A stretch of DNA of 64,000 nucleotides from Candidatus Hydrogenedentota bacterium. GTDB taxonomy: Bacteria; Hydrogenedentota; Hydrogenedentia; Hydrogenedentales; SLHB01. The stretch lies in NCBI GenBank assembly GCA_029974275.1, contig JARKSN010000313.1, positions 2,855 through 66,854 on the forward strand. Reading direction: 5' to 3'. The notes beneath the pieces were generated by a model that was given only the letters and a program-made list of their open reading frames with translations, was not told where the DNA came from and made no database searches. A program made the translations under genes and the position numbers. The stretch's first letter is position 1; the number at the start of each line of letters is the position of its first letter. Shown here one piece after another: positions 19,114 to 34,344 of the stretch.

Positions 19114-19309
19114 GAACGCCCCGAAACAAAACAGAAAAATCCATTATGCCGTGCAATCCGGCAACGTGCGATCCGCATCATAGTATCCGCACGCCCCACG
19201 GGGCTCAACTTCGTGACGCCCCACGAATGCGCCGCCCGGCGCAGGTGTTATCATCGAGAAAGGCGATCGTCTTTGCATGGCAACCCATAGACGCCAGGAG
19301 GAGGCCCGC

Positions 19310-21460
19310 ATGCGCGCCGCTCGAAACAACACGCCGCCGAATCGGCTTGCCCGTGCGACAAGCCCCTACTTGCGGCAACATGCGCACAATCCCGTGGATT
19401 GGTTTCCGTGGTGCGAAGAAGCGCTGCGAAAAGCGGAGCGCGAGGACAAGCCCATTTTCCTGTCCATCGGCTACTCCGCGTGTCACTGGTGTCATGTCAT
19501 GGAACGAGAGTCCTTTGAAGACAAGGACACCGCGGCGCTGCTCAACGCGCATTTCGTCAGCATCAAGGTTGATCGAGAAGAGCGGCCCGATCTCGACGAG
19601 CTCTACATGAGCGCGGTGCAACTCACGACGCAAAACGGCGGATGGCCCATGTCGGTGTTCCTGACGCCGGAGCGGATGCCGTTCTACTGCGGCACGTATT
19701 TCCCTCCGTCCGATCAGCATGGGCGCCCAGGCTTCCAGACCGTGCTCCGCGCATTGGCGAAGGCGTGGCGAGAACAACGCGACTTCATTCGCGGCAATGC
19801 GCGGCAACTTACCGAATGCCTTCGCCTCGGCGGAGCGGGGCGACCCGAGGAAAGCGCGCCGATACGCCCCGATCTGATCCGCCATGCGGCGGCGGCGCTG
19901 TCCATGAGCTTCGACCCCGAACATGGCGGCTGGGGCGGCGCGCCGAAATTTCCCGCGCCGGCATCGATCGCGACGCTGTTGCGCCACGCCTGGCGTCACG
20001 GAGATTCCCATGCTCTCGCCATGGCCTCGTCCACCTTGGAAGCCATGGCGCGCGGAGGCATTCACGACCATCTTGGCGGCGGCTTCCACCGGTATGCGGT
20101 CGACGCGGCATGGCATGTTCCCCACTTTGAAAAAATGCTCTACGACAATGCGCAACTCGCGGCAGCATATCTCGAAGGATACCAATGCACGAAAAAATCG
20201 CTTTTCCGGGAGACGGCGGAAGGAATTTTTCGGTATGTCCTGCGCGATCTGATTTCTCCGGAAGGCGGTTTCTTTTCCAGCGAAGACGCAGACAGCGACG
20301 GACAGGAAGGGATGTTCTATCTGTGGAAGCGCGATGAATTGGACGCCGTTCTCGGCAAGGACGATGCGGCGCTTTTCGCCCATTGCTATAACGTGCGCCC
20401 CGAGGGAAATTTCGATTCGCCCGAAACGCGCCACGCGGGCATGAACATCCTGCGCCGGGCATGGCCCATCGACCCGCACGAAGCCGTTTTTTGCGGGATG
20501 GAGGCGACCGCGCTGGAGGCAGCGCTGGAGCCGATGCGGACGCGCCTTTTCAACGTCCGCGCCCAACGCGCCCGGCCAGGACGAGACGACAAAGCGATCG
20601 CTTCCTGGAATGGAATGATGATCGCGGCGTTCGCGCGCGGCGCGCAGGCACTCCACGAGCCACGGTATGCCGAAGCGGCCCGGCGCGCCGCCGGGTTCAC
20701 GCTCGAACGCTTGCGTCACGATGGACTGCTGGCGCGCAGTTATCGCGATGGCGCGACAAGCGCGCCGGGCTTCCTGGACGACTATGCCCAGGTCGCTTCG
20801 GCTTTGGTTGACCTGTACGAGACCGAGTTCGATGCGCGTTGGCTGCGCGAGGCCAAGCTGCTTGCCGATCGCATGATCGCGTTGTTTTGGGATCGGGAGG
20901 CAGGCGGCTTTTTCAGCGCGCCCCACGGCCAAGAGGACCTTATCGCGCGACTCAAACCGGTCTACGATACGGCCGAACCTTCTGGCAACGCGGCGGCGGC
21001 GACGCTCCTGCTGCGCCTGGCCGCCTATTTTGATAACGCCGAATACCGGAAAACGGCGGAAATCGTGCTCGAACAAAATGCGGCCCTGCTTGAAACGGTT
21101 CCGCAAGCCATGGGCCGCATGCTCTGCGCGGCAGACCAATATCTGCATCCCCCGACGGAAATCGTGCTGGTCGGACCGCGCTCATGCGCCGACGTCCAGC
21201 GCATGGTGCGCGCATTGCACGAGCATTTTCTTCCGAATAAAGTAGTGGCCTTGGCGGATGCTGAAGACGATGACCCGGTTGCGTCGCGGCGCAGGCCATG
21301 GGCCGCCGTCAACGCCATGCAACGCGGCGCGGCCACGGCGCTTGTATGCAGCGATTTCACGTGCCTGCCGCCGCTGGCTACGCCCGAGGCGCTGGCGCAA
21401 GCGTTGGAAAAAGCCAACGGGAGGACGCACGAATGCGCACATGGATCCTCGTCGGATTGA
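19310..21460 (+). CDS. yyaL: Thioredoxin-domain protein YyaL (DUF255 plus six-hairpin glycosidase-like domain)
   Basis: GGAGGAGG RBS 7 nt before the [26 protein letters not shown]...[19 protein letters not shown] is the DUF255/thioredoxin-like N-terminus of YyaL. About 700 aa. Confidence 0.75.
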
Positions 21461-23166
21461 TCGCGTTGATAGGCGCGGGGCTGCTGGACCGTCCCGTGCA
21501 AGCGCAGTCATCTTCCCCGGCGATGCGCGTCGAAGCGGTTACGCAAACCGACGCCGCTCACCCAGGCTCCCGCCTCGACGTCGCCATCGTCGCCACCCTT
21601 CCCGAAGGCTGGCATACCAACTCCAACGCGCCGCTGGAGGCATTTCTGATACCCACCGAACTCACCGTGACGCCTCCCGCAGGCATTACGGTCGAGCGCA
21701 TCGCGTACCCCGAGGCCAAGCGCGTCACGTTCTCGTTCTCCTCCACGCCTGTCGCCGTGTACGATCGCGAGTTTGTGATGCGAGTGCAGCTGGCCCTTGC
21801 CAAGGACCTGGCTCCCGGCGCATATCTGGCAACGGGCGCGCTGCGCTACCAGGCCTGCAACGATCGCACCTGCGCCCCGCCCAAAACCGTCCCCGTGTCG
21901 ATCGCGGTGAACGTCGTTCCGCCTGATCGCGCCGTGACGCCACAGCGCCCGGAACTGTTCGATCAGCCCCTTTCCGCCGCGCCCGCCGAAACGGGGCGGT
22001 CCGAAGCGCCAACGACGCCGGTCGCGGAGCCTTCCCCCGGCGCCTGGAAAGAACGACTCGAACGTTTCGAGACGATGAGCGTCGGAAGTTTCATGACCGC
22101 CTCCGAATTCTTGCGCTTCCTCGAGGACGCGGAATCGGGGAGAGGGCGATCGGCGACGGGCTTGTTTGAGGGACGCAGCATCGCGACGGTGATCCTCTTG
22201 ACGTTGATCGGCGGTCTCGCGCTGAACCTGACGCCGTGCGTGTTGCCGTTGATTCCCATCAACATCGCGATCATCGGCGCCGGCGCACGCGCCAGTTCGC
22301 GCGGACGCGGCTTCGCTTTGGGCGCGGTGTATGGCGGCGGCATCGCTCTCGTCTACGGCGCGCTCGGACTGATCGTCGTGATCGCCGGAAAGACCTTTGG
22401 CGCGATCAACGCCTCGCCTTGGTTCAACGGCGCGATCGCCGTCGTGTTTGTCGCGCTCGCCTTGGCCATGTTCGACCTGTTCCTAATTGATTTCACCCGC
22501 TTTCAAGCCAAGATCGGCCTCAAGAAAAAAGAAGGCGGCAGCTATCCCGTCGCGTTTTTCATGGGGGGGATATCCGCGCTACTCGCGGGCGCGTGCGTGG
22601 CGCCCGTCGTGATCGCCGTCCTTCTTTTCTCGCAAGACCTGTACGCCAAGGGGTCGTCGGCCGCGTTGCTGCTTCCCTTCCTGTTGGGCGTGGGCATGGC
22701 CTTGCCCTGGCCCTTCGCGGGAGCCGGTCTTTCCTTTCTGCCCAAGCCCGGCAAATGGATGGAGCGCGTCAAATATGCCTTCGGCGTTTTTATCCTGCTC
22801 CTCGCCGGATACTACGGCTACCTGTCCTACAGTCTGTTCACCGCCCGCACTTCCGAAACCACGCACGTGGCCCAAAGCGTCGCCGCCCTCGAAACACACG
22901 GCTGGACCTCGTCGCTCGAAGAAGGTCTTGCCCGCGCCGCTTCCGAGAAGAAACCCGTGGTGATCGATTTCTGGGCCACCTGGTGCAAGAACTGTCAAAT
23001 CATGAACGAGACCACCTTCAAAGACCCTGAAGTTGTCCGCCGTCTCGATCGCTACGTCAAAATCAAATACCAGGCAGAGTCTCCCGACGATCCGCCGCAC
23101 AAGGAAATTCTCGACCGCTTCCGCGCCGTCGGTCTGCCTACAATCGTGGTCCTGCGTCCAAAATGA
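21433..23166 (+). CDS. dsbD: Thiol:disulfide interchange protein DsbD (protein-disulfide reductase)
   Basis: Signal peptide [19 protein letters not shown]-terminal DsbD-alpha domain with [12 protein letters not shown]. Central multi-TM CcdA-like domain. C-terminal thioredoxin [12 protein letters not shown]. Confidence 0.8.
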
Positions 23167-23257
23167 ATCGGGAGCCGGGACTTTTCTTTTGGACACTCAT
23201 GCTCTATAATGTCGCCAATAGCCAGCGGTTCCGATGCCGCGAATGGAGGAACTAGAA

Positions 23258-23824
23258 ATGAACCGAAAGGTGCGCTTGGGTGTCGCCGTATGTGTGTCCA
23301 TGTTGCTTGCCGCGTTCTTGGTCGTCGCCACGCACGCCGACGACGGCGCCACGTACGTCGGCGCCGCCAAGTGCAAGATGTGCCACAACAAAGCCGATGA
23401 GGGGCAAGTGTGGACGAAGTGGCAGGAATCGAAACATGCCAAAGCCTTCGCGACGTTGAAAACGGATGAAGCCAAAGCGGTCGCCGAAAAAGCGGGCGTT
23501 GCCACGGCTCCGTCCGAAGCGCCCGAATGCCTGCGCTGCCACGTGACCGCATATGAGAAAGACAAGCCACTCCCGGCGGACATCAAGATGGAGGACGGCG
23601 TCCAGTGCGAAAGCTGCCACGGCCCTGAGTCCGCGCACTTTGCCGCAGCCAAAAAGGCGCTTGCAGACAAGTCCATTCCCCAAGTCCTTTCGGGCGCGCC
23701 CAAGGAAGAAACGTGCAAGAAATGCCACAATCCGGAGAGTCCGACGTATAAGGAATTCAACTTCAAGTCGTTCTCCGAAAAGATTGCCCATCCCAACCCG
23801 TTGCGAAAGGCCCCCAAATCCTGA
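23258..23824 (+). CDS. Periplasmic tetraheme c-type cytochrome
   Basis: GGAGG RBS. Signal peptide. Four CxxCH motifs (CKMCH, CLRCH, CESCH, CKKCH). Confidence 0.75.
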   Translation: MNRKVRLGVAVCVSMLLAAFLVVATHADDGATYVGAAKCKMCHNKADEGQVWTKWQESKHAKAFATLKTDEAKAVAEKAGVATAPSEAPECLRCHVTAYEKDKPLPADIKMEDGVQCESCHGPESAHFAAAKKALADKSIPQVLSGAPKEETCKKCHNPESPTYKEFNFKSFSEKIAHPNPLRKAPKS

Positions 23825-23995
23825 TCGCGCCGTGACCCGAGCGAAGCTGTCCGTTTGCGTGCGATGCGCGGTTTCCGGAGAGGCCTTCCTTCGCACAGCA
23901 AGCCGAGGCCATGATTTCGCCCGCGCACGCCGCAGCTGTGAGTGAATAACGATTGGGCTGGGTTCCGATCCGGACGACTGGACCATGGAGACGCC

Positions 23996-24643
23996 ATGAA
24001 AACACGCATCCTGCTGTCCGCACTCGTAGTCTGTTCCCTCGGGTGCGATGCCGACAACGTCAAATCCATTACGCAAGCGCGGATGGTTCCCGCGCCCGCA
24101 CTGGCGACGGCGGACGGGACGGCGACGCAAGGATTTCATGCGGCGCACCCCCCTATCGAGGCATCGGGCATGGCGGGATCGCCGCATGCGCGGACGGTTC
24201 CCTTCCGTTGGACCAAGCCCGCTTCCTGGGCCGACATTCCGCCCACGTCCATGCGGCTCGCCAATTTTTCCATTCCTGACCGGCCCCGCGTCGAATGCTA
24301 TATTTCGACGTTGTCGGGCGCGGCGGGGGGCGTCGCCGCAAACGTCAACCGTTGGCGCAACCAGATGGGGCAACCCGATCTCGCCTCCGACGAGATCGCC
24401 GCGTTGCCGACGATCGAGGTGATGGGCAAACCGGCTTCGATGGTCGAGACGACGGGCTCCTACACCGGCATGAAAGGGGCCACCGAACCCAACTACACGT
24501 TGCGCGGCCTTGTCTTGGAATTGCCCGGCCAGGTTCTTTTCGTCAAGATGATTGGTCCAACGGAAGAAGTGGCTGCCTTGAAGGAGGATTTCGTGGCATT
24601 ATGCGCCTCGATCGCCTCCGTTCCGCCGGAAGACGCCCCGTGA
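23996..24643 (+). CDS. Lipoprotein of unknown function, embedded in the cytochrome c maturation cluster
   Basis: MKTRILLSALVVCSLGC lipobox signal. No CxxC motif and no recognised family. Confidence 0.5.
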   Translation: MKTRILLSALVVCSLGCDADNVKSITQARMVPAPALATADGTATQGFHAAHPPIEASGMAGSPHARTVPFRWTKPASWADIPPTSMRLANFSIPDRPRVECYISTLSGAAGGVAANVNRWRNQMGQPDLASDEIAALPTIEVMGKPASMVETTGSYTGMKGATEPNYTLRGLVLELPGQVLFVKMIGPTEEVAALKEDFVALCASIASVPPEDAP

Positions 24644-25809
24644 AGATCATCCTTCAACGCGGGTTTCTCGCCCTTTCCTCGTACGGATTCTCCTGCATAT
24701 TGTTTTTGTTCCTGTTTGTGCTGACCTATCTGGGAACCATCGAACAGGTTACGCACGGCCTGTACGAAACCAGCCGGAAGTATTTCGAGTCCGTTTTTCT
24801 GACGCATTACCTGTGGGGAGTCGTTCCCGTGCCGCTCCCCGGGGCCTACCTCCTGCTCGTCCTGCTTGCCCTCAATCTCGTAGCCTGCGCCTTCGTGCGC
24901 AACCGGCTGAGTTGGGCGCGCACCGGCGTGTTGCTGGCCCATGCAGGCATCTTGCTCTTGCTGCTTGGCGCCTTCCTCTCTTTTCAACGCTCGCAACAGG
25001 GCCAACTGACACTGTACGAAAATGAGCACGCCCATGAATTCCAAAGCTATCAGCAATGGGAGATCGGGCTCTGTCCTCTTGCGAAACCCGGAACGACGGT
25101 GGAAGAGCGCATCATTTCGCCCCGAGATCTCGCCCAGGGGAAGCGGAACGCCCCTGTCTCTTTCGAATTTCCTGGGCTTCCCATCCGCCTTACGGTGTCG
25201 GATTTCGCTAGGAATGCCCGTCCTCAATCCGCAAGCGGATCTTCCGTCGCCGGCAAGGCGATCGACGGCGTCGTATTGACGGCGCTTCCCCCCGCTCGGG
25301 ATGGCGAGACGAATATTCCAGGAGCCTACGTAACCGTGGAGGACCTGTCCAGCGGCGAGCAGCGCGAAGGCATTTTGTGGGGCGCCGCGCGATCCCCGCT
25401 TGCGTTGGAATTGGGCGGCGTCTCCTGGGCGATCGAACTGCGGCGCCAGCGTTGGACCTTGCCTTTCCAGGTGACGCTTGATTCATTCGTCCGGGAGGTC
25501 TATCCGCGCACCTCCATCCCGAAGGTGTTTGAGAGCACAGTGACCGTCCGCGACGGCGATCTCGAGCAGCGTTTCAAGATCGCCATGAATGAGCCGTTGC
25601 GCTACAAGGGCTATACGTTTTTTCAATCCTCCTGGGGGCCGCCGAACGCCGGGCCCAACGATCGGCTCTACTCCACGCTCGCCGTGGTGAAAAATCCGGC
25701 GGAAAAATTCCCCTTGTACGCTTCCGCCGTCATATCCCTGGGCATGTCCATTCACTTCGGGCTGGCGCTCATCCCGCGCCTCAAGAACCGGAGACGGAGG
25801 ACGGCATGA
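24601..25809 (+). CDS. ccsB: Cytochrome c biogenesis protein CcsB/ResB (System II)
   Basis: N-terminal TM helices (FSCILFLFLFVLTYLGTIEQ), a large periplasmic domain, and the C-terminal RYKGYTFFQSSWGP plus final TM helix typical of the ResB family. Start ambiguous: ATG at 24601 overlaps the lipoprotein by 43 nt, or GTG at 24642 overlaps its stop. Confidence 0.7.
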   Translation: MRLDRLRSAGRRPVKIILQRGFLALSSYGFSCILFLFLFVLTYLGTIEQVTHGLYETSRKYFESVFLTHYLWGVVPVPLPGAYLLLVLLALNLVACAFVRNRLSWARTGVLLAHAGILLLLLGAFLSFQRSQQGQLTLYENEHAHEFQSYQQWEIGLCPLAKPGTTVEERIISPRDLAQGKRNAPVSFEFPGLPIRLTVSDFARNARPQSASGSSVAGKAIDGVVLTALPPARDGETNIPGAYVTVEDLSSGEQREGILWGAARSPLALELGGVSWAIELRRQRWTLPFQVTLDSFVREVYPRTSIPKVFESTVTVRDGDLEQRFKIAMNEPLRYKGYTFFQSSWGPPNAGPNDRLYSTLAVVKNPAEKFPLYASAVISLGMSIHFGLALIPRLKNRRRRTA

Positions 25810-27794
25810 GACCTTTGTTTTTCATACGCGTCGCGGCGATTTCCGGGGGGTTGTTTCTGGCATCCGCCGGTCTGGCCGGCACCCAGCCCGTGCAGGATCC
25901 TTCCGCGCCCCCGTCTTGGGATGCGCCAACCGAGCGGCTGTTTTCTTCCCTGCCCATCCAGGACGAGGGACGCATCAAGCCCATGGGGACATTCGCGGCG
26001 TACACGTTGATGAAGTTCAGCGGCAAGCAAACCTGCAAGGACCCGTCCGGGAATACGCTTTCCGCGACCGCTTGGCTTATGCACTGCCTGTTTCATCCGC
26101 GCTATGCGCAGACCTGCAACGTGTTCCGGGTGGACGATTCCGGCGTTATGGTGGCGCTCGGATTGCCGTTTACGCGCAAGCGCGACCTCTACGCGCACCA
26201 GGATCTCGCGCCCGCCGCCGCAAAACTCTCCGCGCTGGCCGAACAATACGCGCATGTGCCCGCCAAACAGCGGACGCCTCTCCAAACTCAACTCCTCAAC
26301 CTGGCCAGCAACGTTCACGATTTCGAATCGCTGCTGGGGGCGATGGACTTTACGGAAGTTTCGTTTACGTTTCCATCTTCCGATCCGCTGGGCGCCCTCT
26401 TTCCCCAAGATCGCCCGTATCGCATCAGCGACGCGCTCGCCAAGTCCGGCGCGATTCGAGCCGCCGTCATCGCGATGCGATCCCAGGCGGGCGCCGAGAA
26501 AGACCAGGATCCCCAGGGGTGGGCCTCGGTGGGCGTTTTGTTGGGAGAAATGGAAAAGATCGCGGCCCACGGCCATGTTCTTGCCCTTTTTCCGCCCCCG
26601 CCGGATTCGGGAGAAAAAGAATGGATGGCTCCTGCCGACGTCGTCGAATGGGCCTTCGATCGCGACGAGGAAGAGCCGTCCGCCGCTCCCATCGCTTTGT
26701 TGCGTTCGCTCGAGGATCTCGCCCTCGCCCGGCATGACGCCGCTGCATTCGCCGCCAACCTACGTCTCTTTCATGACGCCGTCACCCAGATCGCCATGGC
26801 CCGGGGCGAATACGAAAAAGTTCCTCTCGAAAACGCCTACCACCGCGCCAAGCTTTTTCAACGCAGCTTGATGTTGTATATCCTGGCCTTTCTGATCCTC
26901 GCGGCATCCTGGGCATTGCCCAAGCGAATGACCGAGAACACGTTTACGGACGCATTGTTGATGTTCGCCGTGTTTGCGCCCACGGCATGTCTCGGCGCGG
27001 GCATTGTTTTACGTTGCATCATTCGCGAGCGCCCCCCGGTGACGACGCTCTACGAAACCATTCTCTTCGTAACGTTCACGGCGGCGCTTATCGCCCTTCT
27101 CATTGAATTTCTTTCCAAACAACGTTTGGCGCTGTCGCTGGGGGCGATTCTTGGCGTGTTGGGAATGTTTTTGGCCAACAAATACGAAATCGAGGAGGGC
27201 GTGGACACGATGCCCAGCATGGTGGCCGTGCTGGATTCGAATTTCTGGTTGTCCACGCACGTGACCACCATTGCCATCGGGTATGCGGCCGGCCTGCTTG
27301 CGGGGGCCATCGCCCATGTATACCTTTTGGGAAAGCTCATGGGATTTCGGAAAGATGACCCCGTTTTTTATGGGGACATTACGCGCATGGTGTATGGGAC
27401 CTTGTGTTTCAGCTTGTTGTTTTCCGTGATTGGCACCGTGCTGGGCGGCGTCTGGGCCAACGAAAGCTGGGGCCGCTTCTGGGGATGGGACCCCAAGGAA
27501 AACGGGGCCCTTCTTATCGTTCTCTGGCAATTGGCCCTTCTCCATGCGCGATTGGGAGGTTATCTTCGCGATCACGGCGTCAACATGGGGGCGGTTTTTG
27601 GCGGCATTGTCGTCGCTTTCTCTTGGTTTGGGGTGAATTTGCTGGGCGTCGGCTTGCATAGCTATGGGTTTGCCACAGGAACCCATCGCGCCTTGCTGCT
27701 TTTCTACGCCGTCGAGGGCGTGGCGCTTTTGTTGGGCTGGGTGGCATGGCTGCGCTCGGACAGCGGATCCGCCGGGCAAAGCGCGAAGACATAG
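25806..27794 (+). CDS. ccsA: Cytochrome c-type biogenesis protein CcsA/ResC (System II heme lyase subunit) with large N-terminal periplasmic extension
   Basis: Start overlaps the ccsB stop (ATGA). C-terminal WGRFWGWDPKENGALLIVLW tryptophan-rich WWD heme-handling motif and conserved His-containing TM helices. 662 aa. Confidence 0.8.
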   Translation: MRPLFFIRVAAISGGLFLASAGLAGTQPVQDPSAPPSWDAPTERLFSSLPIQDEGRIKPMGTFAAYTLMKFSGKQTCKDPSGNTLSATAWLMHCLFHPRYAQTCNVFRVDDSGVMVALGLPFTRKRDLYAHQDLAPAAAKLSALAEQYAHVPAKQRTPLQTQLLNLASNVHDFESLLGAMDFTEVSFTFPSSDPLGALFPQDRPYRISDALAKSGAIRAAVIAMRSQAGAEKDQDPQGWASVGVLLGEMEKIAAHGHVLALFPPPPDSGEKEWMAPADVVEWAFDRDEEEPSAAPIALLRSLEDLALARHDAAAFAANLRLFHDAVTQIAMARGEYEKVPLENAYHRAKLFQRSLMLYILAFLILAASWALPKRMTENTFTDALLMFAVFAPTACLGAGIVLRCIIRERPPVTTLYETILFVTFTAALIALLIEFLSKQRLALSLGAILGVLGMFLANKYEIEEGVDTMPSMVAVLDSNFWLSTHVTTIAIGYAAGLLAGAIAHVYLLGKLMGFRKDDPVFYGDITRMVYGTLCFSLLFSVIGTVLGGVWANESWGRFWGWDPKENGALLIVLWQLALLHARLGGYLRDHGVNMGAVFGGIVVAFSWFGVNLLGVGLHSYGFATGTHRALLLFYAVEGVALLLGWVAWLRSDSGSAGQSAKT

Positions 27795-28219: not shown

Positions 28220-30784
28220 ATGAAACGTCGGATCGCAGCGCCTATAATCTCTCTTCTGGCAACGGGGATGCTTGCGCTTGGAGTGGGGGGATGCGGCCTG
28301 GTCGTGGTGTCGCCTTCCGTGGCGTCGTTGAAGGTTGGTCAGACCGTGGGGCTGACCGCGAGCGGCACGTCGGACACGAGTTTCACGTGGCGCACCTCGA
28401 ATCCGGCCGTGGCTTCGGTAAGTGAGGGCGGGGTGGTGACGGCGCTGGCGATTGGGTCGGCCCGCATCACGGCGACCGGCAACGCTTCCGGTCAAGTGGG
28501 GAGCGCCGTCATCAACGTCGTGCCGTTTGTGGCGCGCGTCACGGTCGTTCCGGACGCGGCTTCCCTGGAGGCAGGCAAGACCTTGGCGCTGGCGGTTTCC
28601 TCGAATGATCCCCTTGACGCGAATTTTGAATGGGTTTCCAGCGATACGGCCGTTGCGACGGTCGACGCTTCCGGCGTGGTGACGGGGGCGGCTTCAGGAA
28701 TGGCCGTCATTTCGGCCACGGGCGTTCATAGCGGTGCGGGCGCCAAGGGGACATGCTCGATCACGGTCACCCCGCGCGTCATTCTTCCCCCTGTTGCGAA
28801 CGCGGGCGTCAGCGGAACGGCTTCCTACAACACCACGGTCGCGTTGGACGGGTCGTTGAGCAGCGATCCGCAGAGTTTGACGTTGACCTATGCGTGGACG
28901 CAGACTTCGGGGCCTGCGGCGACGCTTACGGGGGCGACGACGAACAAGCCTTCCTTCAAGCCTGCGCAACCGGGGTCGTACGTGTTTGAGCTGGTTGTGA
29001 ACAACGGGACCTTGTCCAGCGCTCCCGCGACGGTCACGATCACGGCGGTGAACAATCCCCCTGCGGCGGCCATAGCGATTGACGCCATTTCGGATATCGA
29101 GCGGCAGTACCTGGGGTTGGAAAGCACCTTGTCGAGCGGCTTGTCCAATGTCGGCGTCGGCACGGACGTGTATTTGCTGGGATCGGCCACGGACATCAAC
29201 GGCGATGCCATCGTCGGGTTTCAGTGGTCGATCGTGTCGCGCCCTGCCGGCTCCCTGGCGGCGTTGACCACCCCCACGGAGGCGGACACGGCGTTTCGCC
29301 CGGATGTCGCTGGCACGTATCGGATTTCGCTGATCGCTTCCGACGGTCTGAAAGCGGCGGGGGCCGCCGCCACGCAGGATATTCACGCGGGCTTCTGGGT
29401 CGGCGAAGGCACCGACGTTGGCCAGAGCGCCTGTGCGCCGTGTCACAACGGCACGGTCGCGCCGGACAAGACCACGGAGTGGCTGGGCACCAAACACGCC
29501 ATCACGTTTGCCAATCGGATTGATGGGCTGTACGGTCCGACGTATCCCGAGTATTGCCGCCGCTGTCATACGGTTGGGTATGACAAAACCGGCACGGCGG
29601 CAAACAATGGATTCGACGACGTGGCGGCGTCGGTAGGCTGGACGCTTCCCGGCACGCTACAGCCGGGCAATTGGGCGGCCCTGATCGCCGACACGCCGCA
29701 GTTGGCGCGTCTGGCGAATGTCCAATGCGAGAATTGTCATGGCCCGGCGAGCCAGCATGTGGCCGGGGCGGCGTTCACGCGCGACAAGAAGATGTCGGTT
29801 TCCTTCGGCAGCGGCAACTGCGGCATGTGTCATGGACAGGAAGAGGAATGGAAGCTGACCGGTCATGCGGACGAAAACGCGGAGCCGTGGACGATGCCGG
29901 TGGGGCCGTCTCGGACGGCGTGTGTGCGATGCCATTCGGGGGTGGGTTTTATCGACACGATTGGCGGGGTCACGCCGGCGCGCACGACCAAGCAGAATCC
30001 CACGTGCGCGGTGTGTCATGATCCCCACAGCGACGCCCACGAAGCCCAGTTGCGTTTGGGGGATGAGGTCACCTTGCCGGGCAACGTGCGCGTGACGGGG
30101 GTCGGGCCGAACGCGGTATGCATGTATTGCCACAACGCGCGGCGGGCTCCGGCGGACGCCCTCGCTGGGTCCTATCCGCATTACAGCACCGCGTCGGAGA
30201 TGGTCCTGGGGGTCAATGGGATCACCTATTCCAACGGTCCCATTCCCAATTCGCCGCATACCTTGATGAAGACGGGATGCGTGGACTGTCATATGGCGCC
30301 GACGCCGGGCGTGGAACGCGACAATGTGCATCAGCCGGGCGAGGGCGTGGTGGGGGCGCATACCTTGGCAATCACCGCTCGAACCTCCGATCCGGCAAGC
30401 CCGGATTATGGGTTTGAGAACGTGCAGCACGCATGCAACACGGCGGGGTGCCATGACAAGAGCCCCATCGTCGCGGTGAATCGCACGGCGTATGGAGATT
30501 ATGATGGCGATGGCGCGATCGAGGGCGTCCAGGATGAGGTGCGGGATTTGATGGCGCTGGTGAAGACCGCGATCGTGAACAGCGGGGTGACGGCGCTTGC
30601 CAACAACCCCTACTGGGCCAACGTCACCACCAATGCCCAGCGCAGGGCCATTTACAACTATTCCCTGGCAAAGGGCGATGGCAGTTACGGCATTCACAAT
30701 ACGGGTTTCGTGGTTGGATTGCTCCAGTTGTCCTACAAAGATTTGAAGGGGCATGACGTTCCGGGGGCGACGCTCCGGTATTGA
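28220..30784 (+). CDS. Outer-surface lipoprotein multiheme c-type cytochrome with three N-terminal bacterial Ig-like (Big_2) domains (8 CxxCH plus one CX4CH)
   Basis: Lipobox LALGVGGCG. Three Big_2-like repeats (TSNPAVASVSEGGVVTALAIGSARITATG; SSDTAVATVDASGVVTGAASGMAVISATG). Heme motifs CAPCH, CRRCH, CENCH, CGMCH, CVRCH, CAVCH, CMYCH, CVDCH plus C-terminal CNTAGCH. Confidence 0.8.
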   Translation: MKRRIAAPIISLLATGMLALGVGGCGLVVVSPSVASLKVGQTVGLTASGTSDTSFTWRTSNPAVASVSEGGVVTALAIGSARITATGNASGQVGSAVINVVPFVARVTVVPDAASLEAGKTLALAVSSNDPLDANFEWVSSDTAVATVDASGVVTGAASGMAVISATGVHSGAGAKGTCSITVTPRVILPPVANAGVSGTASYNTTVALDGSLSSDPQSLTLTYAWTQTSGPAATLTGATTNKPSFKPAQPGSYVFELVVNNGTLSSAPATVTITAVNNPPAAAIAIDAISDIERQYLGLESTLSSGLSNVGVGTDVYLLGSATDINGDAIVGFQWSIVSRPAGSLAALTTPTEADTAFRPDVAGTYRISLIASDGLKAAGAAATQDIHAGFWVGEGTDVGQSACAPCHNGTVAPDKTTEWLGTKHAITFANRIDGLYGPTYPEYCRRCHTVGYDKTGTAANNGFDDVAASVGWTLPGTLQPGNWAALIADTPQLARLANVQCENCHGPASQHVAGAAFTRDKKMSVSFGSGNCGMCHGQEEEWKLTGHADENAEPWTMPVGPSRTACVRCHSGVGFIDTIGGVTPARTTKQNPTCAVCHDPHSDAHEAQLRLGDEVTLPGNVRVTGVGPNAVCMYCHNARRAPADALAGSYPHYSTASEMVLGVNGITYSNGPIPNSPHTLMKTGCVDCHMAPTPGVERDNVHQPGEGVVGAHTLAITARTSDPASPDYGFENVQHACNTAGCHDKSPIVAVNRTAYGDYDGDGAIEGVQDEVRDLMALVKTAIVNSGVTALANNPYWANVTTNAQRRAIYNYSLAKGDGSYGIHNTGFVVGLLQLSYKDLKGHDVPGATLRY

Positions 30785-30848
30785 GCGCAGGTTTTCCAGG
30801 GGCGCGAAGGGGCGGCGTGCGTGCGGGACATAACGTGAGAATGGCGGC

Positions 30849-31646
30849 ATGAACGTGATGTGGAAATCGCTGGCGGTTCCGGCAGGACTGTTGGGTTTTG
30901 TCGTGGCGAGTTCTCTGGGCGCGCAACAGTGCGGCGGGCCGGCCACGGTGGGAACGGGGGTTTGCATCGCGTGTCATGACGGGCGTTCCGCCACGGACCA
31001 ACTCGATTTTCTGGTCAGCCAGCATGCCGGCATCGAGTGCGAAGCCTGCCACGGACCGGGCTACGTGCATGTACGCAATGGCGGACGCGGCGGACGGTTC
31101 ATCAAAAACCCCGCCAAGGAGTCATTCGCGAACGCGTATCGGCTTTGCACCGCTTGCCATGCGGAGCAGGTGGCTGGTTTTCTGGCGAGCGGTCACGGCC
31201 AGAAACAGGCGGCGACGTGCCATGACTGTCACGACGTGCATGCGCCCGGCGGCGCCCGACGCAATCCGAACAACAACGAGATGTGTCTGACATGCCATGC
31301 GCCGTTCGGATTTTCGGACAGCGCGGCCATCGAGGCGCATACGATGTATCATCCGAATGATCCGGGGGGGACGGGCGCGAGTCGTTGCATCTCCTGTCAC
31401 ATGCCGCCGTTGGACGCGATCCTTCAGGCAGACGGCCCGCATGATCACACGCTGGCGACGATCCCGCCGATTCGTTCCAACGAGGCCGCGCAGGCGGGCG
31501 CGGTTCCGACGCCGCCCAATTCGTGTTCGGGCATCGCGGGCTGTCACGATGGTTCCGTGCCCGGCGCGCCGATTTTTGACGTCGACAATTTCACCTTTAA
31601 CGGCATACTCCAATCGCTCTATGAGCAGGTGGGTCAGATGCCGTAA
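30849..31646 (+). CDS. Periplasmic multiheme c-type cytochrome (6 CxxCH plus one CX5CH)
   Basis: Signal peptide MNVMWKSLAVPAGLLGFVVASSLGAQQ. Motifs CIACH, CEACH, CTACH, CHDCH, CLTCH, CISCH and C-terminal CSGIAGCH. Confidence 0.8.
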   Translation: MNVMWKSLAVPAGLLGFVVASSLGAQQCGGPATVGTGVCIACHDGRSATDQLDFLVSQHAGIECEACHGPGYVHVRNGGRGGRFIKNPAKESFANAYRLCTACHAEQVAGFLASGHGQKQAATCHDCHDVHAPGGARRNPNNNEMCLTCHAPFGFSDSAAIEAHTMYHPNDPGGTGASRCISCHMPPLDAILQADGPHDHTLATIPPIRSNEAAQAGAVPTPPNSCSGIAGCHDGSVPGAPIFDVDNFTFNGILQSLYEQVGQMP

Positions 31647-31673: not shown

Positions 31674-33302
31674 GTGATCCGGCGGCGCATGGCGGAGGCG
31701 GGGAGACGCACGGTGGGAGTTGAGCACGCATTTCGATGGCGGTGGGCGTTGGCAGGCGTTGTCCTATGGGGTTTCGTGATCGGCGCTTCCGCACGCGCCG
31801 CGGATCAAGGAGACGACGCTTCTTCGGAAGCCGGGCAGGAAACCCTTCAGGCGCCGCGCGCGGCTGCTCCTGAATCGACCGCGGGGGATGAAAAGCCCGA
31901 GAAGACGCCGAAGAAGTGGTTGCGGGGCAGCTTTGAAACCGGTCTGGACGCCGCATGGTCGGACCGGGATTCGGACATCAATCTGGATCAAACCTTGCGC
32001 GTGAAGATTGACCCGCCGAATCATGAGCGGATTCATATTCGCGCATCGTTGTGGCTGCGGGAAGACCTTGACGGCGACGAGTCGCGGACGAGCGGCTTGC
32101 GCGATGTCGACGACGCCTACGGGTCGAGCGTTCGGTTTCGTCCGCTATACATGTATGTGGACGTGGACGATCTCTGGGGCGATTCCACGTTGCGCCTCGG
32201 CCGGCAACGCATCCAGGAAGGAACGGCCTGGAACCGGATCGACGGCCTTTACTTCAAACAGCGCGCGGCGTGGGGGGACTGGTATGTTTTCGCAGGCGCG
32301 CGGGCTTCCTTGTACACAGACGCGCACAGGGATTTCGCGGGCGGCGGCGGCGTCTCGTTCCGCCCGGCCCCGGCGACGCGGATAGCGCTGGACGGGTATT
32401 ACGGCACGGAGCGCGATCGCGATCGCGATGAGACGTTTTTCTGGCCGTTGGCGTGGGGCGCCTGGTTCAACCTCGCCTCGCCGAGGGCGGTCCCGGACGA
32501 TCGGGAAGACCATCAGATATCGCTGAGCGCGTGGCAAGCGGTCGGCGCGCATCTCATGCTGTATGGCCGTCTCACGGAGCAAAGCGGCGCGTTTCACAGC
32601 GCGCTCCTCAGCGCGACGGGAACCATCCCCGCGTGGAACCTCACCTACGAGGCGGCCTACCGCGCCCAGACCGACGCCATTGGGGATCGACTGCGCGATC
32701 TGGGCGGTTTTTACCAGACCGTGGGGCGCCGCGACAAGCGCCAGGACTTTCGGATCGCCTTGCATCGCCCGCTGACGGAAAAATGGACGCTTTCGCTGGA
32801 AAGCGAATTTCGCCGAAGCGACGCCCATGCTTCCGGTTTCGGCAATCGCGATTATGATCGTTACGCGGCGATCCTGTCGGCGGAAAAGCTGCGGGGCGGC
32901 ATCGACGCCACCGTCGGTCTCGCGTGGTGGCGCACCGATCGCGATCAGGGGTCGACGGCCGTCACGGCGGAGGTTGCCAAGAAATGGAGCCGCCTTTCGC
33001 TGGCGTTGGGGGCTGATTTCGAGCGATACGAGGACCGGATTGTTTATCATCCCCTGTCGTTTTGGGCGGACCAATTCACGCCGGGGACGATCTTCGGCGC
33101 GTATCCATTCGTCAATCGTTTGCTGTATCTCGCGGATGGCGTGGCGATCGACACGCGCGAAAACGTGCGGTCGATCTACGGAAAGGCCAAATGGACCGTC
33201 CGGCCTGACCATGACGTGAACGCGCGCGTCTCGTACGAGACGGACAGCGAGCCGGATTCGCCGTACTGGCGGGTGCAGATGGGATATGTCGTTCGTTTCT
33301 AA
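31674..33302 (+). CDS. Outer-membrane beta-barrel protein (porin-like), candidate porin component of a porin-cytochrome complex
   Basis: Signal peptide ending ASARA. About 500 aa of alternating amphipathic beta-strand-like segments rich in Tyr, Trp, Arg and Asp. Terminates YVVRF: a C-terminal aromatic Phe is the classic BAM recognition signature of OM beta-barrels. Lies between multiheme cytochrome genes. Start may be M6 at 31689. Confidence 0.6.
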   Translation: MIRRRMAEAGRRTVGVEHAFRWRWALAGVVLWGFVIGASARAADQGDDASSEAGQETLQAPRAAAPESTAGDEKPEKTPKKWLRGSFETGLDAAWSDRDSDINLDQTLRVKIDPPNHERIHIRASLWLREDLDGDESRTSGLRDVDDAYGSSVRFRPLYMYVDVDDLWGDSTLRLGRQRIQEGTAWNRIDGLYFKQRAAWGDWYVFAGARASLYTDAHRDFAGGGGVSFRPAPATRIALDGYYGTERDRDRDETFFWPLAWGAWFNLASPRAVPDDREDHQISLSAWQAVGAHLMLYGRLTEQSGAFHSALLSATGTIPAWNLTYEAAYRAQTDAIGDRLRDLGGFYQTVGRRDKRQDFRIALHRPLTEKWTLSLESEFRRSDAHASGFGNRDYDRYAAILSAEKLRGGIDATVGLAWWRTDRDQGSTAVTAEVAKKWSRLSLALGADFERYEDRIVYHPLSFWADQFTPGTIFGAYPFVNRLLYLADGVAIDTRENVRSIYGKAKWTVRPDHDVNARVSYETDSEPDSPYWRVQMGYVVRF

Positions 33303-33321
33303 CGCGAAGGAGTGTGCTGCG

Positions 33322-34344
33322 ATGCCGCGCCGCAACGGAAAGCTATGGTTGATGACGGGCCTGCTCGTTGCGCTTGCGGGCGCGTGCATGACGTATTCGG
33401 TGACTTCCTTGGCGCGCAAGGACCGCGGTATCCGCGCCCACCATGCCCAGCACGCCAAGGAAGGGCTGGCCTGCGCCGACTGCCACGCTTTCGACAAGGG
33501 GGAGGCTGTTTTTCCCGGTCATGACACCTGCAGCGCCTGCCACGAGGTCGACGCCGAGCTCACGCCCGGCAAGGCGTGCGAGAAATGCCATACGAAGGAG
33601 GGCTACGCGATCGAGCGCTATGTCAAGCGCGTGCGGGATGAAGTGAAATTCGCGCATCCGGTTCATCTTGCCAAAGGCATCGAATGCGCCGTCTGCCATG
33701 CCGATCCCGACAAGTCCCTGCTGTCGACCGGATCGCTGAAACCGTTCTGCATGGACTGCCATGGCAAGACCGATCCCGCGCTGAATGCTTGCGAGACCTG
33801 TCACGCCGTCATCAACAAGACCGTCCGCCCGACGGAACGCGGCGGAGTCCGCTTGGCGCACGATGCCCCCGCCATTTGGGAACGCGTGCATGGCCGCGAG
33901 TCGCGGGTCGATCCGAAATACTGCGCGTTGTGCCACGACCAGGAGGATGATTGCGAGGATTGTCACCGCAAGACGCCTCCCCGGGATCATACCGTGGCGT
34001 GGCGTCGCGACGGGCACGGCCTGCGCGCCCAATGGGATATCGAGAAATGCTCCACCTGTCATGAAGAAGACATGTGCATCAAGTGTCACCGGAACGCCGC
34101 GCCGCGATCGCACGCCGCCGGGTGGGGAAGCCCCGCCAATCTTCATTGCGCGACATGCCATTATCCGCCTGCGGGGGAAGGATGCGTGACGTGTCATGAG
34201 ACCGTCTCGCATGCGACGGCCATGCCGTCGCCGCATGATATGGGCATTTTCCCGCCAAAATGCGGCCGCTGTCATCCCGGAGGATTGCCCAATCGCGCGC
34301 CCCACATCATGAACGGCAGCGCGCGCTGCGCCGTTTGCCACTGA
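33322..34344 (+). CDS. Multiheme c-type cytochrome, 14 CxxCH motifs (c7-polymer-like)
   Basis: Signal peptide MPRRNGKLWLMTGLLVALAGAC (lipobox-like). CADCH, CSACH, CEKCH, CAVCH, CMDCH, CETCH, CALCH, CEDCH, CSTCH, CIKCH, CATCH, CVTCH, CGRCH, CAVCH: one heme per about 24 residues. Overlaps the barrel gene by 17 nt if started at 33286. Confidence 0.8.
   Translation: MPRRNGKLWLMTGLLVALAGACMTYSVTSLARKDRGIRAHHAQHAKEGLACADCHAFDKGEAVFPGHDTCSACHEVDAELTPGKACEKCHTKEGYAIERYVKRVRDEVKFAHPVHLAKGIECAVCHADPDKSLLSTGSLKPFCMDCHGKTDPALNACETCHAVINKTVRPTERGGVRLAHDAPAIWERVHGRESRVDPKYCALCHDQEDDCEDCHRKTPPRDHTVAWRRDGHGLRAQWDIEKCSTCHEEDMCIKCHRNAAPRSHAAGWGSPANLHCATCHYPPAGEGCVTCHETVSHATAMPSPHDMGIFPPKCGRCHPGGLPNRAPHIMNGSARCAVCH

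Follow-up and report, generated by a model that had tools for sequence, protein, structure and literature searches.

We analysed a 64-kb window of DNA from a Candidatus Hydrogenedentota genome (the window being the whole stretch under study) and focused on two neighbouring multihaem cytochrome genes whose products each carry one haem-binding motif with an expanded spacing between the two cysteines. The first product, a lipoprotein of 854 residues (nucleotides (nt) 28220-30784, forward strand), contains eight canonical CXXCH motifs and one CX4CH motif (CNTAGCH), while the second, a small cytochrome of 265 residues (nt 30849-31646, forward strand), contains six CXXCH motifs and one CX5CH motif (CSGIAGCH), both expanded motifs being followed by Asp. 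Most probably, both are covalent c-type haem sites with a longer inter-cysteine loop, and the two are of independent origin. A first-pass annotation of the window, made from the sequence alone, had picked out this pair of motifs and located them correctly to within 1-3 nt. It had described them as lying at the C-termini, which holds in that each is the last haem site of its protein, but not literally, since 108 residues of the lipoprotein and 32 residues of the small cytochrome separate the motifs from the ends. Its reading of the motifs as expanded CXnCH haem-binding sites remains the best one for both, and for the CX5CH motif it is joined by strong conservation.

Conservation and homology of the CX5CH site

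The CX5CH-D site of the small cytochrome (nt 31524-31550, forward strand) reads C226-S-G-I-A-G-C232-H233-D234 and is the predicted attachment site of haem 7. We assembled a set of 120 homologous small cytochromes, whose retrieval made no use of the motif and which are nearly all from Hydrogenedentota. The C-x5-C-H arrangement is kept in every one of the 120 sequences, in the form …PPNSC[AS]GxxGCHD. Specifically, residues C226, G228, G231, C232 and H233 are invariant in all 120, and the next residue is Asp in 117 of them. The AGCHD tail, whose conservation among homologues the first-pass annotation had proposed as a check, is thus fixed in this family in its Gly-Cys-His(-Asp) part, whereas its Ala is variable (31/120).

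The conserved histidines outside the haem motifs provide a further line of evidence. The family includes a subfamily with six CXXCH motifs (66 sequences), which has seven such histidines (H59, H74, H116, H131, H164, H168 and H200 in the numbering of the window protein), and a subfamily with eight CXXCH motifs (50 sequences), which has nine. In both subfamilies the number of non-motif histidines therefore equals the number of canonical sites plus one, so that a distal ligand for an extra haem is available, and the count is what would be needed if the CX5CH site held a bis-His haem. The AlphaFold (AF2) model of the small cytochrome has a mean predicted local distance difference test score (pLDDT) of 93, with values of 93-97 over residues 221-240, which hold the loop.

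To place the site in a wider context, we turned to more distant multihaem proteins. Searched with a profile, a set of 1.84 billion representative proteins yielded 13,747 matches at E<=1e-3, of which 86 reached E<=1e-30. The distant multihaem relatives keep a terminal module of the form RCxxCHMP…D-x-H-s-H-T-F…P…PN[ST]C-(x)n-CH, in which n ranges from 2 to 6. The spacing is that of a canonical motif (n=2) in P0402, P0453, P0420, P0439 and P0373; it is three residues in P0372, P0427, P0403, P0419 and others, four in P0381, P0437, P0447, P0460 and P0471, five in P0451 and in both units of P0361, and six in P0394 and P0396. Expanded motifs are concentrated at this position: among 143 distant-relative proteins, 18 of the 19 CX5CH motifs and 17 of the 36 CX3CH motifs stand at the PN[ST]C(x)nCH site, against 42 of the 2818 canonical motifs. 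Because the homologous site occurs with n=2-6, the canonical CXXCH included, the last site of the small cytochrome is best described from these alignments as a haem site whose inter-cysteine loop is unusually free in length, and the loop length appears to have become a fixed five residues in the small-cytochrome family of Hydrogenedentota.

The same terminal module is repeated in some larger proteins (P0361, P0372, P0373, P0374 and P0381 among those noted). P0361 has two units, each closing with CX5CH, and P0372 has two with CX3CH; P0381 combines one canonical unit with one CX4CH unit (CMTAGCH), which demonstrates that loop length can differ between repeats of one protein.

The small cytochrome itself is closest to the cytochromes of known electron conduits. 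It matches MtrA (6R2Q_A) at E=1.6e-10, and a Foldseek search of the PDB with the model also gave MtrA as the best, though weak, match (E=7e-3). Positions 1-152 of TIGR03508 match residues 35-186 at 54.8 bits against a cut-off of 192.2, and the GSU2203 family (NF041028) scores 59.7 bits against a cut-off of 325. Judging from these sub-cut-off scores and from its seven sites as against ten, the small cytochrome resembles the DmsE/MtrA decahaem and GSU2203 families but is a member of neither. PF02085 (class III cytochrome c3) gives only a weak match over residues 116-185, under its cut-off, so that the protein is not assigned to the c3 family. Additionally, the small cytochrome has a signal peptide, and Cys28 (nt 30930-30932), directly after its hydrophobic region, is invariant in all homologues. 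Position -1 to this residue is mostly Gly or Ser among the homologues, as for a lipoprotein cysteine; the residues ahead of it often fit a lipobox poorly (AQQ-C in the window; VDG-C, QTN-C and IEG-C elsewhere). Cys28 could thus mark either a relaxed lipobox in Hydrogenedentota or a cysteine with another role.

The CX4CH site of the OcwA-like lipoprotein

The 854-residue lipoprotein begins with a signal peptide and a lipobox-like …GVGG-C, followed by Big_2 and PKD-like domains (Pfam). Its multihaem domain spans residues ~390-854 and includes C-terminal helices. Among PDB sequences, phmmer matched it to OcwA of Thermincola (6I5B, E=1.6e-13), and in a Foldseek search with its AlphaFold model (pLDDT 86.8) OcwA 6I5B was again the best match (E=7.5e-9, TM score about 0.5), followed by OmhA, MccA and NrfA; PF02085 gave no match to the lipoprotein at E<=0.01. 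In sequence, fold, number of haem sites (nine) and C-terminal helices the lipoprotein agrees with an OcwA-like nonahaem surface cytochrome. The CX4CH-D site (nt 30434-30457, forward strand) reads C739-N-T-A-G-C744-H745-D746, is the predicted attachment site of haem 9, and is followed by three long helices.

Conservation of this site follows an entirely different pattern. We aligned 120 homologues of the lipoprotein with MAFFT; 103 of them have nine canonical CXXCH motifs and not a single expanded one. The column occupied by CNTAGCH in the window protein reads canonical C-x-x-C-H, that of haem 9, in 118 of the 120 homologues, and CX4CH is present in only 2/121 OcwA-like relatives when the window protein is counted. 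The only other CX4CH belongs to P0121, the closest relative (55% identity), which reads CNTTGCHD. Both cysteines and the histidine of the motif are invariant columns of the alignment (C350, C355 and H356 in alignment A2). Since the site is canonical in 118 homologues and expanded elsewhere only in P0121, the CX4CH motif is most simply interpreted as the family's haem-9 site carrying a recent two-residue insertion. As envisaged here, a canonical CXXCH at haem 9 would have gained two residues to give CNTAGCH, and its arrangement would then be as at haem II of cytochrome c3. A PDB search with a 38-residue peptide around the motif did match cytochrome c3, non-significantly (E=3.7), and we use this as a literal match only. 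The CX4CH site is in any case already known in kind, being of the textbook c3 type. Two lipoprotein homologues, P0122 and P0128, have an extra CX3CH motif (CVNSCH and CMNSCH, respectively), located in an N-terminal extension absent from the window protein.

Origin, haem attachment and maturation

The first-pass annotation had gone further and proposed that the common AGCHD ending of the two neighbouring proteins reflects one specialised haem or metal module, possibly for contact between them. The two sites do look alike in several respects: each is the last haem site of its protein and reads x-G-C-H-D, both proteins end in CxxCHM[PA]P … HT[LF] … C(x)nCH, and when their terminal two-haem modules are aligned globally with hhalign, the expanded sites fall opposite each other (P=1.3e-4). 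However, a local hhalign keeps only the CHMxP segment, and Asp is the commonest residue after CXXCH at ordinary sites of both families (25% and 19%). A BLASTP alignment of the two proteins is off register by one haem and carries no information on the motif. To examine the neighbourhoods, we scanned one genome per species, which gave 47 loci; nearly all of these are labelled Hydrogenedentota, and because the motif served as the search pattern, the scan informs on synteny only. Among these loci, an OcwA-like gene was seen beside the small cytochrome in the window only. In L001 and L003, the outer lipoprotein cytochrome adjoining the small cytochrome is instead a decahaem protein of the MtrC type, all of whose sites are canonical, and conversely the locus of P0121, with its CNTTGCHD, has no small cytochrome nearby. 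Together with the contrast between an insertion in 2/121 relatives and a family-wide motif in 120/120, this distribution largely refutes a module shared between the two proteins, which we regard as highly improbable. By the same contrast, the CX4CH and CX5CH motifs would have arisen independently, without a common inter-protein contact module. The two expansions might nevertheless occupy homologous positions of an old two-haem module, as parallel events and not as a shared contact surface. Two other origins were rejected: chance is ruled out by the conservation of the motifs, and gene conversion between the two genes does not fit a shared stretch of only five residues in non-homologous surroundings.

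Several points weigh against covalent haem attachment at these sites and deserve to be set out together. Attachment at either site is a prediction, which at the CX5CH spacing extrapolates from published spacings. Full-text literature searches found no description of CX5CH as a haem-binding motif; published lists of haem motifs give CX2CK, CX3CH, CX4CH, CX11CH, CX15CH and CX17CH, CX5CH not being among them, and one study that counts CXnCH with n=2-5 does so by regular expression only (PMC12545173). Moreover, the small cytochrome has an odd total of 15 cysteines, and the invariant Cys28 could in principle pair with C226. The two extra cysteines might then not both be haem-bound: C226 would be engaged in a disulfide (for example with Cys28) or in a non-haem metal site, and the haem would be held by a single thioether or be absent. 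The odd cysteine count, the invariance of Cys28 and the missing biochemical precedent for CX5CH in the literature searched all speak for this arrangement. Nevertheless, we consider it very unlikely, since Cys28 is placed like a lipoprotein cysteine and falls where the confidence of the model is lowest (pLDDT 64), distant relatives have a canonical CXXCH at the homologous site, and the histidine count demands one bis-His haem beyond the canonical motifs.

Maturation of the expanded sites brings in the cytochrome c synthase genes of the window. The first-pass annotation had stated that expanded sites usually need dedicated lyases, and had suggested looking for an extra dedicated CcsA/CcsB paralogue. 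The statement goes too far for CX4CH sites of the c3 type, which general systems mature. For CX15CH and CXXCK it is borne out, as dedicated synthases are documented for both (PMC12285233). As for the paralogue, a System II pair does lie right upstream of the two cytochrome genes, comprising a ResB-like gene (nt 24295-25809, forward strand; PF05140) and a CcsA-like gene (nt 25806-27794, forward strand; PF01578), but it belongs to one phylum-wide orthologue group and its dedication is unproven. The linkage of such a pair to the small cytochrome and its two downstream partners (the triad described below) is real. In 14 of the 47 genome loci, an orthologous ResB/CcsA pair (41-53% identity) lies no more than 10 kb from the triad; among the 28 loci that have >=9 kb of downstream flank, the figure is 11. 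In L005, the one such locus viewed in detail, the pair lies downstream, with a tetrahaem gene between it and the triad.

The CX5CH site could accordingly need a dedicated synthase, namely this neighbouring pair, much as the CX15CH site of MccA has its own synthase, CcsA1. Apart from the position of the two genes, their recurrence near the triad and the documented cases, the CcsA-like protein has features that would suit a specialised enzyme: it scores 128 bits against a TIGR03144 cut-off of 187.6 and has a 390-residue N-terminal extension. Against this, its best 120 homologues form one group of ~650 residues and 43-54% identity, as expected of an ordinary CcsA; where named, their taxa are Hydrogenedentes/-ota except for two Lentisphaeria, one Nitrospiraceae and one unclassified 'bacterium'. 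In addition, the pair in the window is accompanied by a full DsbD, as in a general system, a synthase gene is missing from the surroundings in at least 17 loci whose flanks are complete, and general systems suffice for c3-type CX4CH. Because of the single phylum-wide CcsA group and the full DsbD alongside, the pair resembles the usual System II machinery of the phylum, located close to what would be its largest client operon, and dedication to the CX5CH site is unlikely. A broader proposal, that CX5CH and CX6CH are genuine, uncharacterised covalent haem c spacings at the n=2-6 terminal site of MtrA-like wires, handled by a ResB/CcsA that is either specialised or unusually permissive, we hold to be a little less doubtful, though still improbable as a whole.

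Gene neighbourhood, putative conduit and known systems

The small cytochrome is the first member of a conserved gene triad. It is followed by the gene of a secreted 542-residue protein (nt 31674-33302, forward strand) and by that of a 352-residue lipoprotein cytochrome with 14 CXXCH motifs (nt 33286-34344, forward strand), the latter two genes overlapping by 17 nt. Practically all loci with sufficient flanking sequence preserve this order. Across loci, the middle protein has ~530 residues and ends in …GYVVRF, and the third is a 14-haem lipoprotein of ~350 residues, with about 25 residues per haem; the orthologues of the 352-residue lipoprotein likewise carry 14 CXXCH motifs. The 542-residue protein has no Pfam or NCBIfam match; from its signal peptide and its aromatic …GYVVRF end, we presume it to be an outer-membrane beta-barrel (porin). 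The triad looks like a porin-cytochrome electron conduit, and the cassette suggests that extracellular electron transfer takes place in Hydrogenedentota. A literature search on conduits or extracellular electron transfer in Hydrogenedentota, which covered titles and abstracts, returned nothing on the subject in these.

Based on these findings, we propose the following working model. After export, the small cytochrome would carry seven bis-His haems in a chain. Haem 7 would be bound through C226 and C232, with H233 as the proximal ligand and one of the seven conserved extra histidines as the distal ligand, and the invariant G228 and G231 would let the five-residue loop span the two haem vinyl positions. 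The small cytochrome, the putative porin and the 14-haem lipoprotein would together form a trans-outer-membrane conduit, which in the window genome would pass electrons to the OcwA-like surface reductase. Because the triad looks like a porin-cytochrome conduit, this wire would end in the CX5CH haem, which would likely be the hand-over point. Speculatively, the five-residue loop may tune the exposure or the potential of this terminal haem.

Further genes lie upstream of the cassette, all on the forward strand; there, DsbD, a tetrahaem cytochrome and the ResB/CcsA pair make up a complete block for System II maturation of cytochrome c. A DsbD gene (nt 21298-23166) precedes a tetrahaem c554-like cytochrome gene (nt 23234-23824), which stands between it and the ResB-like gene. 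Just 5' of DsbD, a 727-residue protein (nt 19277-21460) combines an N-terminal DUF255/thioredoxin domain with a GH76-like region. An open reading frame of 233 residues without a family match (nt 23942-24643) runs ~350 nt past the point where the ResB-like gene is annotated to start, and the ResB Pfam match is limited to residues 388-449 of the ResB-like reading frame; the true start of that gene is uncertain for these two reasons.

What is new in these data is the invariant CX5CH motif, together with the occurrence of all spacings from n=2 to n=6 at a single homologous site, neither of which is surprising in principle. The finding bears on haem counting, on conduit modelling and on the specificity of cytochrome c synthases. 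The haem-counting scripts described in the genomic studies consulted accept CX2-4CH at most (PMC5566968, PMC10734462), and with such counting the whole Hydrogenedentota family would be scored one haem short. The haem left out is the one predicted to end the wire, a point of consequence for any model of how electrons leave the conduit. Furthermore, the natural n=2-6 series offers a test set for the loop lengths that cytochrome c synthases tolerate.

Comparison with known systems places the two sites on different backgrounds. The CX4CH motif of the lipoprotein resembles haem II of cytochrome c3 from Desulfovibrio vulgaris, which reads CATAGCHD in 2CDV and CGTAGCHD in 1MDV. The CNTAGCHD of the window agrees with them in spacing and in the residues T-A-G-C-H-D, and in cytochrome c3 the motif is a structurally solved covalent bis-His haem. 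Unlike in c3, the motif of the window stands at haem 9 of an OcwA-like nonahaem domain, where it would stem from an insertion, and the peptide match between the two falls short of significance, as given above. The lipoprotein is like OcwA of Thermincola potens (6I5B) and OmhA (6QVM), cell-surface cytochromes of the NrfA/MccA/c554 superfamily, in having nine haem sites, and it shares with OcwA the C-terminal helices with a DGSxGIHN segment. It differs from OcwA in being a diderm lipoprotein with N-terminal Big_2 and PKD domains and in having CX4CH as its last haem site.

MccA, the octahaem sulfite reductase, shares a clade with OcwA and likewise has its expansion, CX15CH/CX17CH, at the last haem position (bioRxiv 10.1101/2022.02.24.481543). 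This site, haem 8, is served by the dedicated synthase CcsA1, and a nearby System II gene is common to MccA and the window. Unlike in MccA, the loops of the window comprise 4-5 residues and not 15-17, there is no sign of an extra Cu site, and dedication of the synthase is not established. The small cytochrome, finally, is MtrA-like, and its family resembles MtrA/DmsE and the conduits MtrCAB and Geobacter Pcc in that its gene stands in a fixed order with those of a putative porin and of multihaem lipoprotein cytochromes. It departs from MtrA/DmsE in carrying seven (or nine) haem sites and not ten, in its scores far below the family cut-offs and in the CX5CH motif at its last haem. In contrast to MtrCAB and Pcc, the putative porin lacks a Pfam or NCBIfam assignment, and the small-cytochrome family is essentially confined to Hydrogenedentota.

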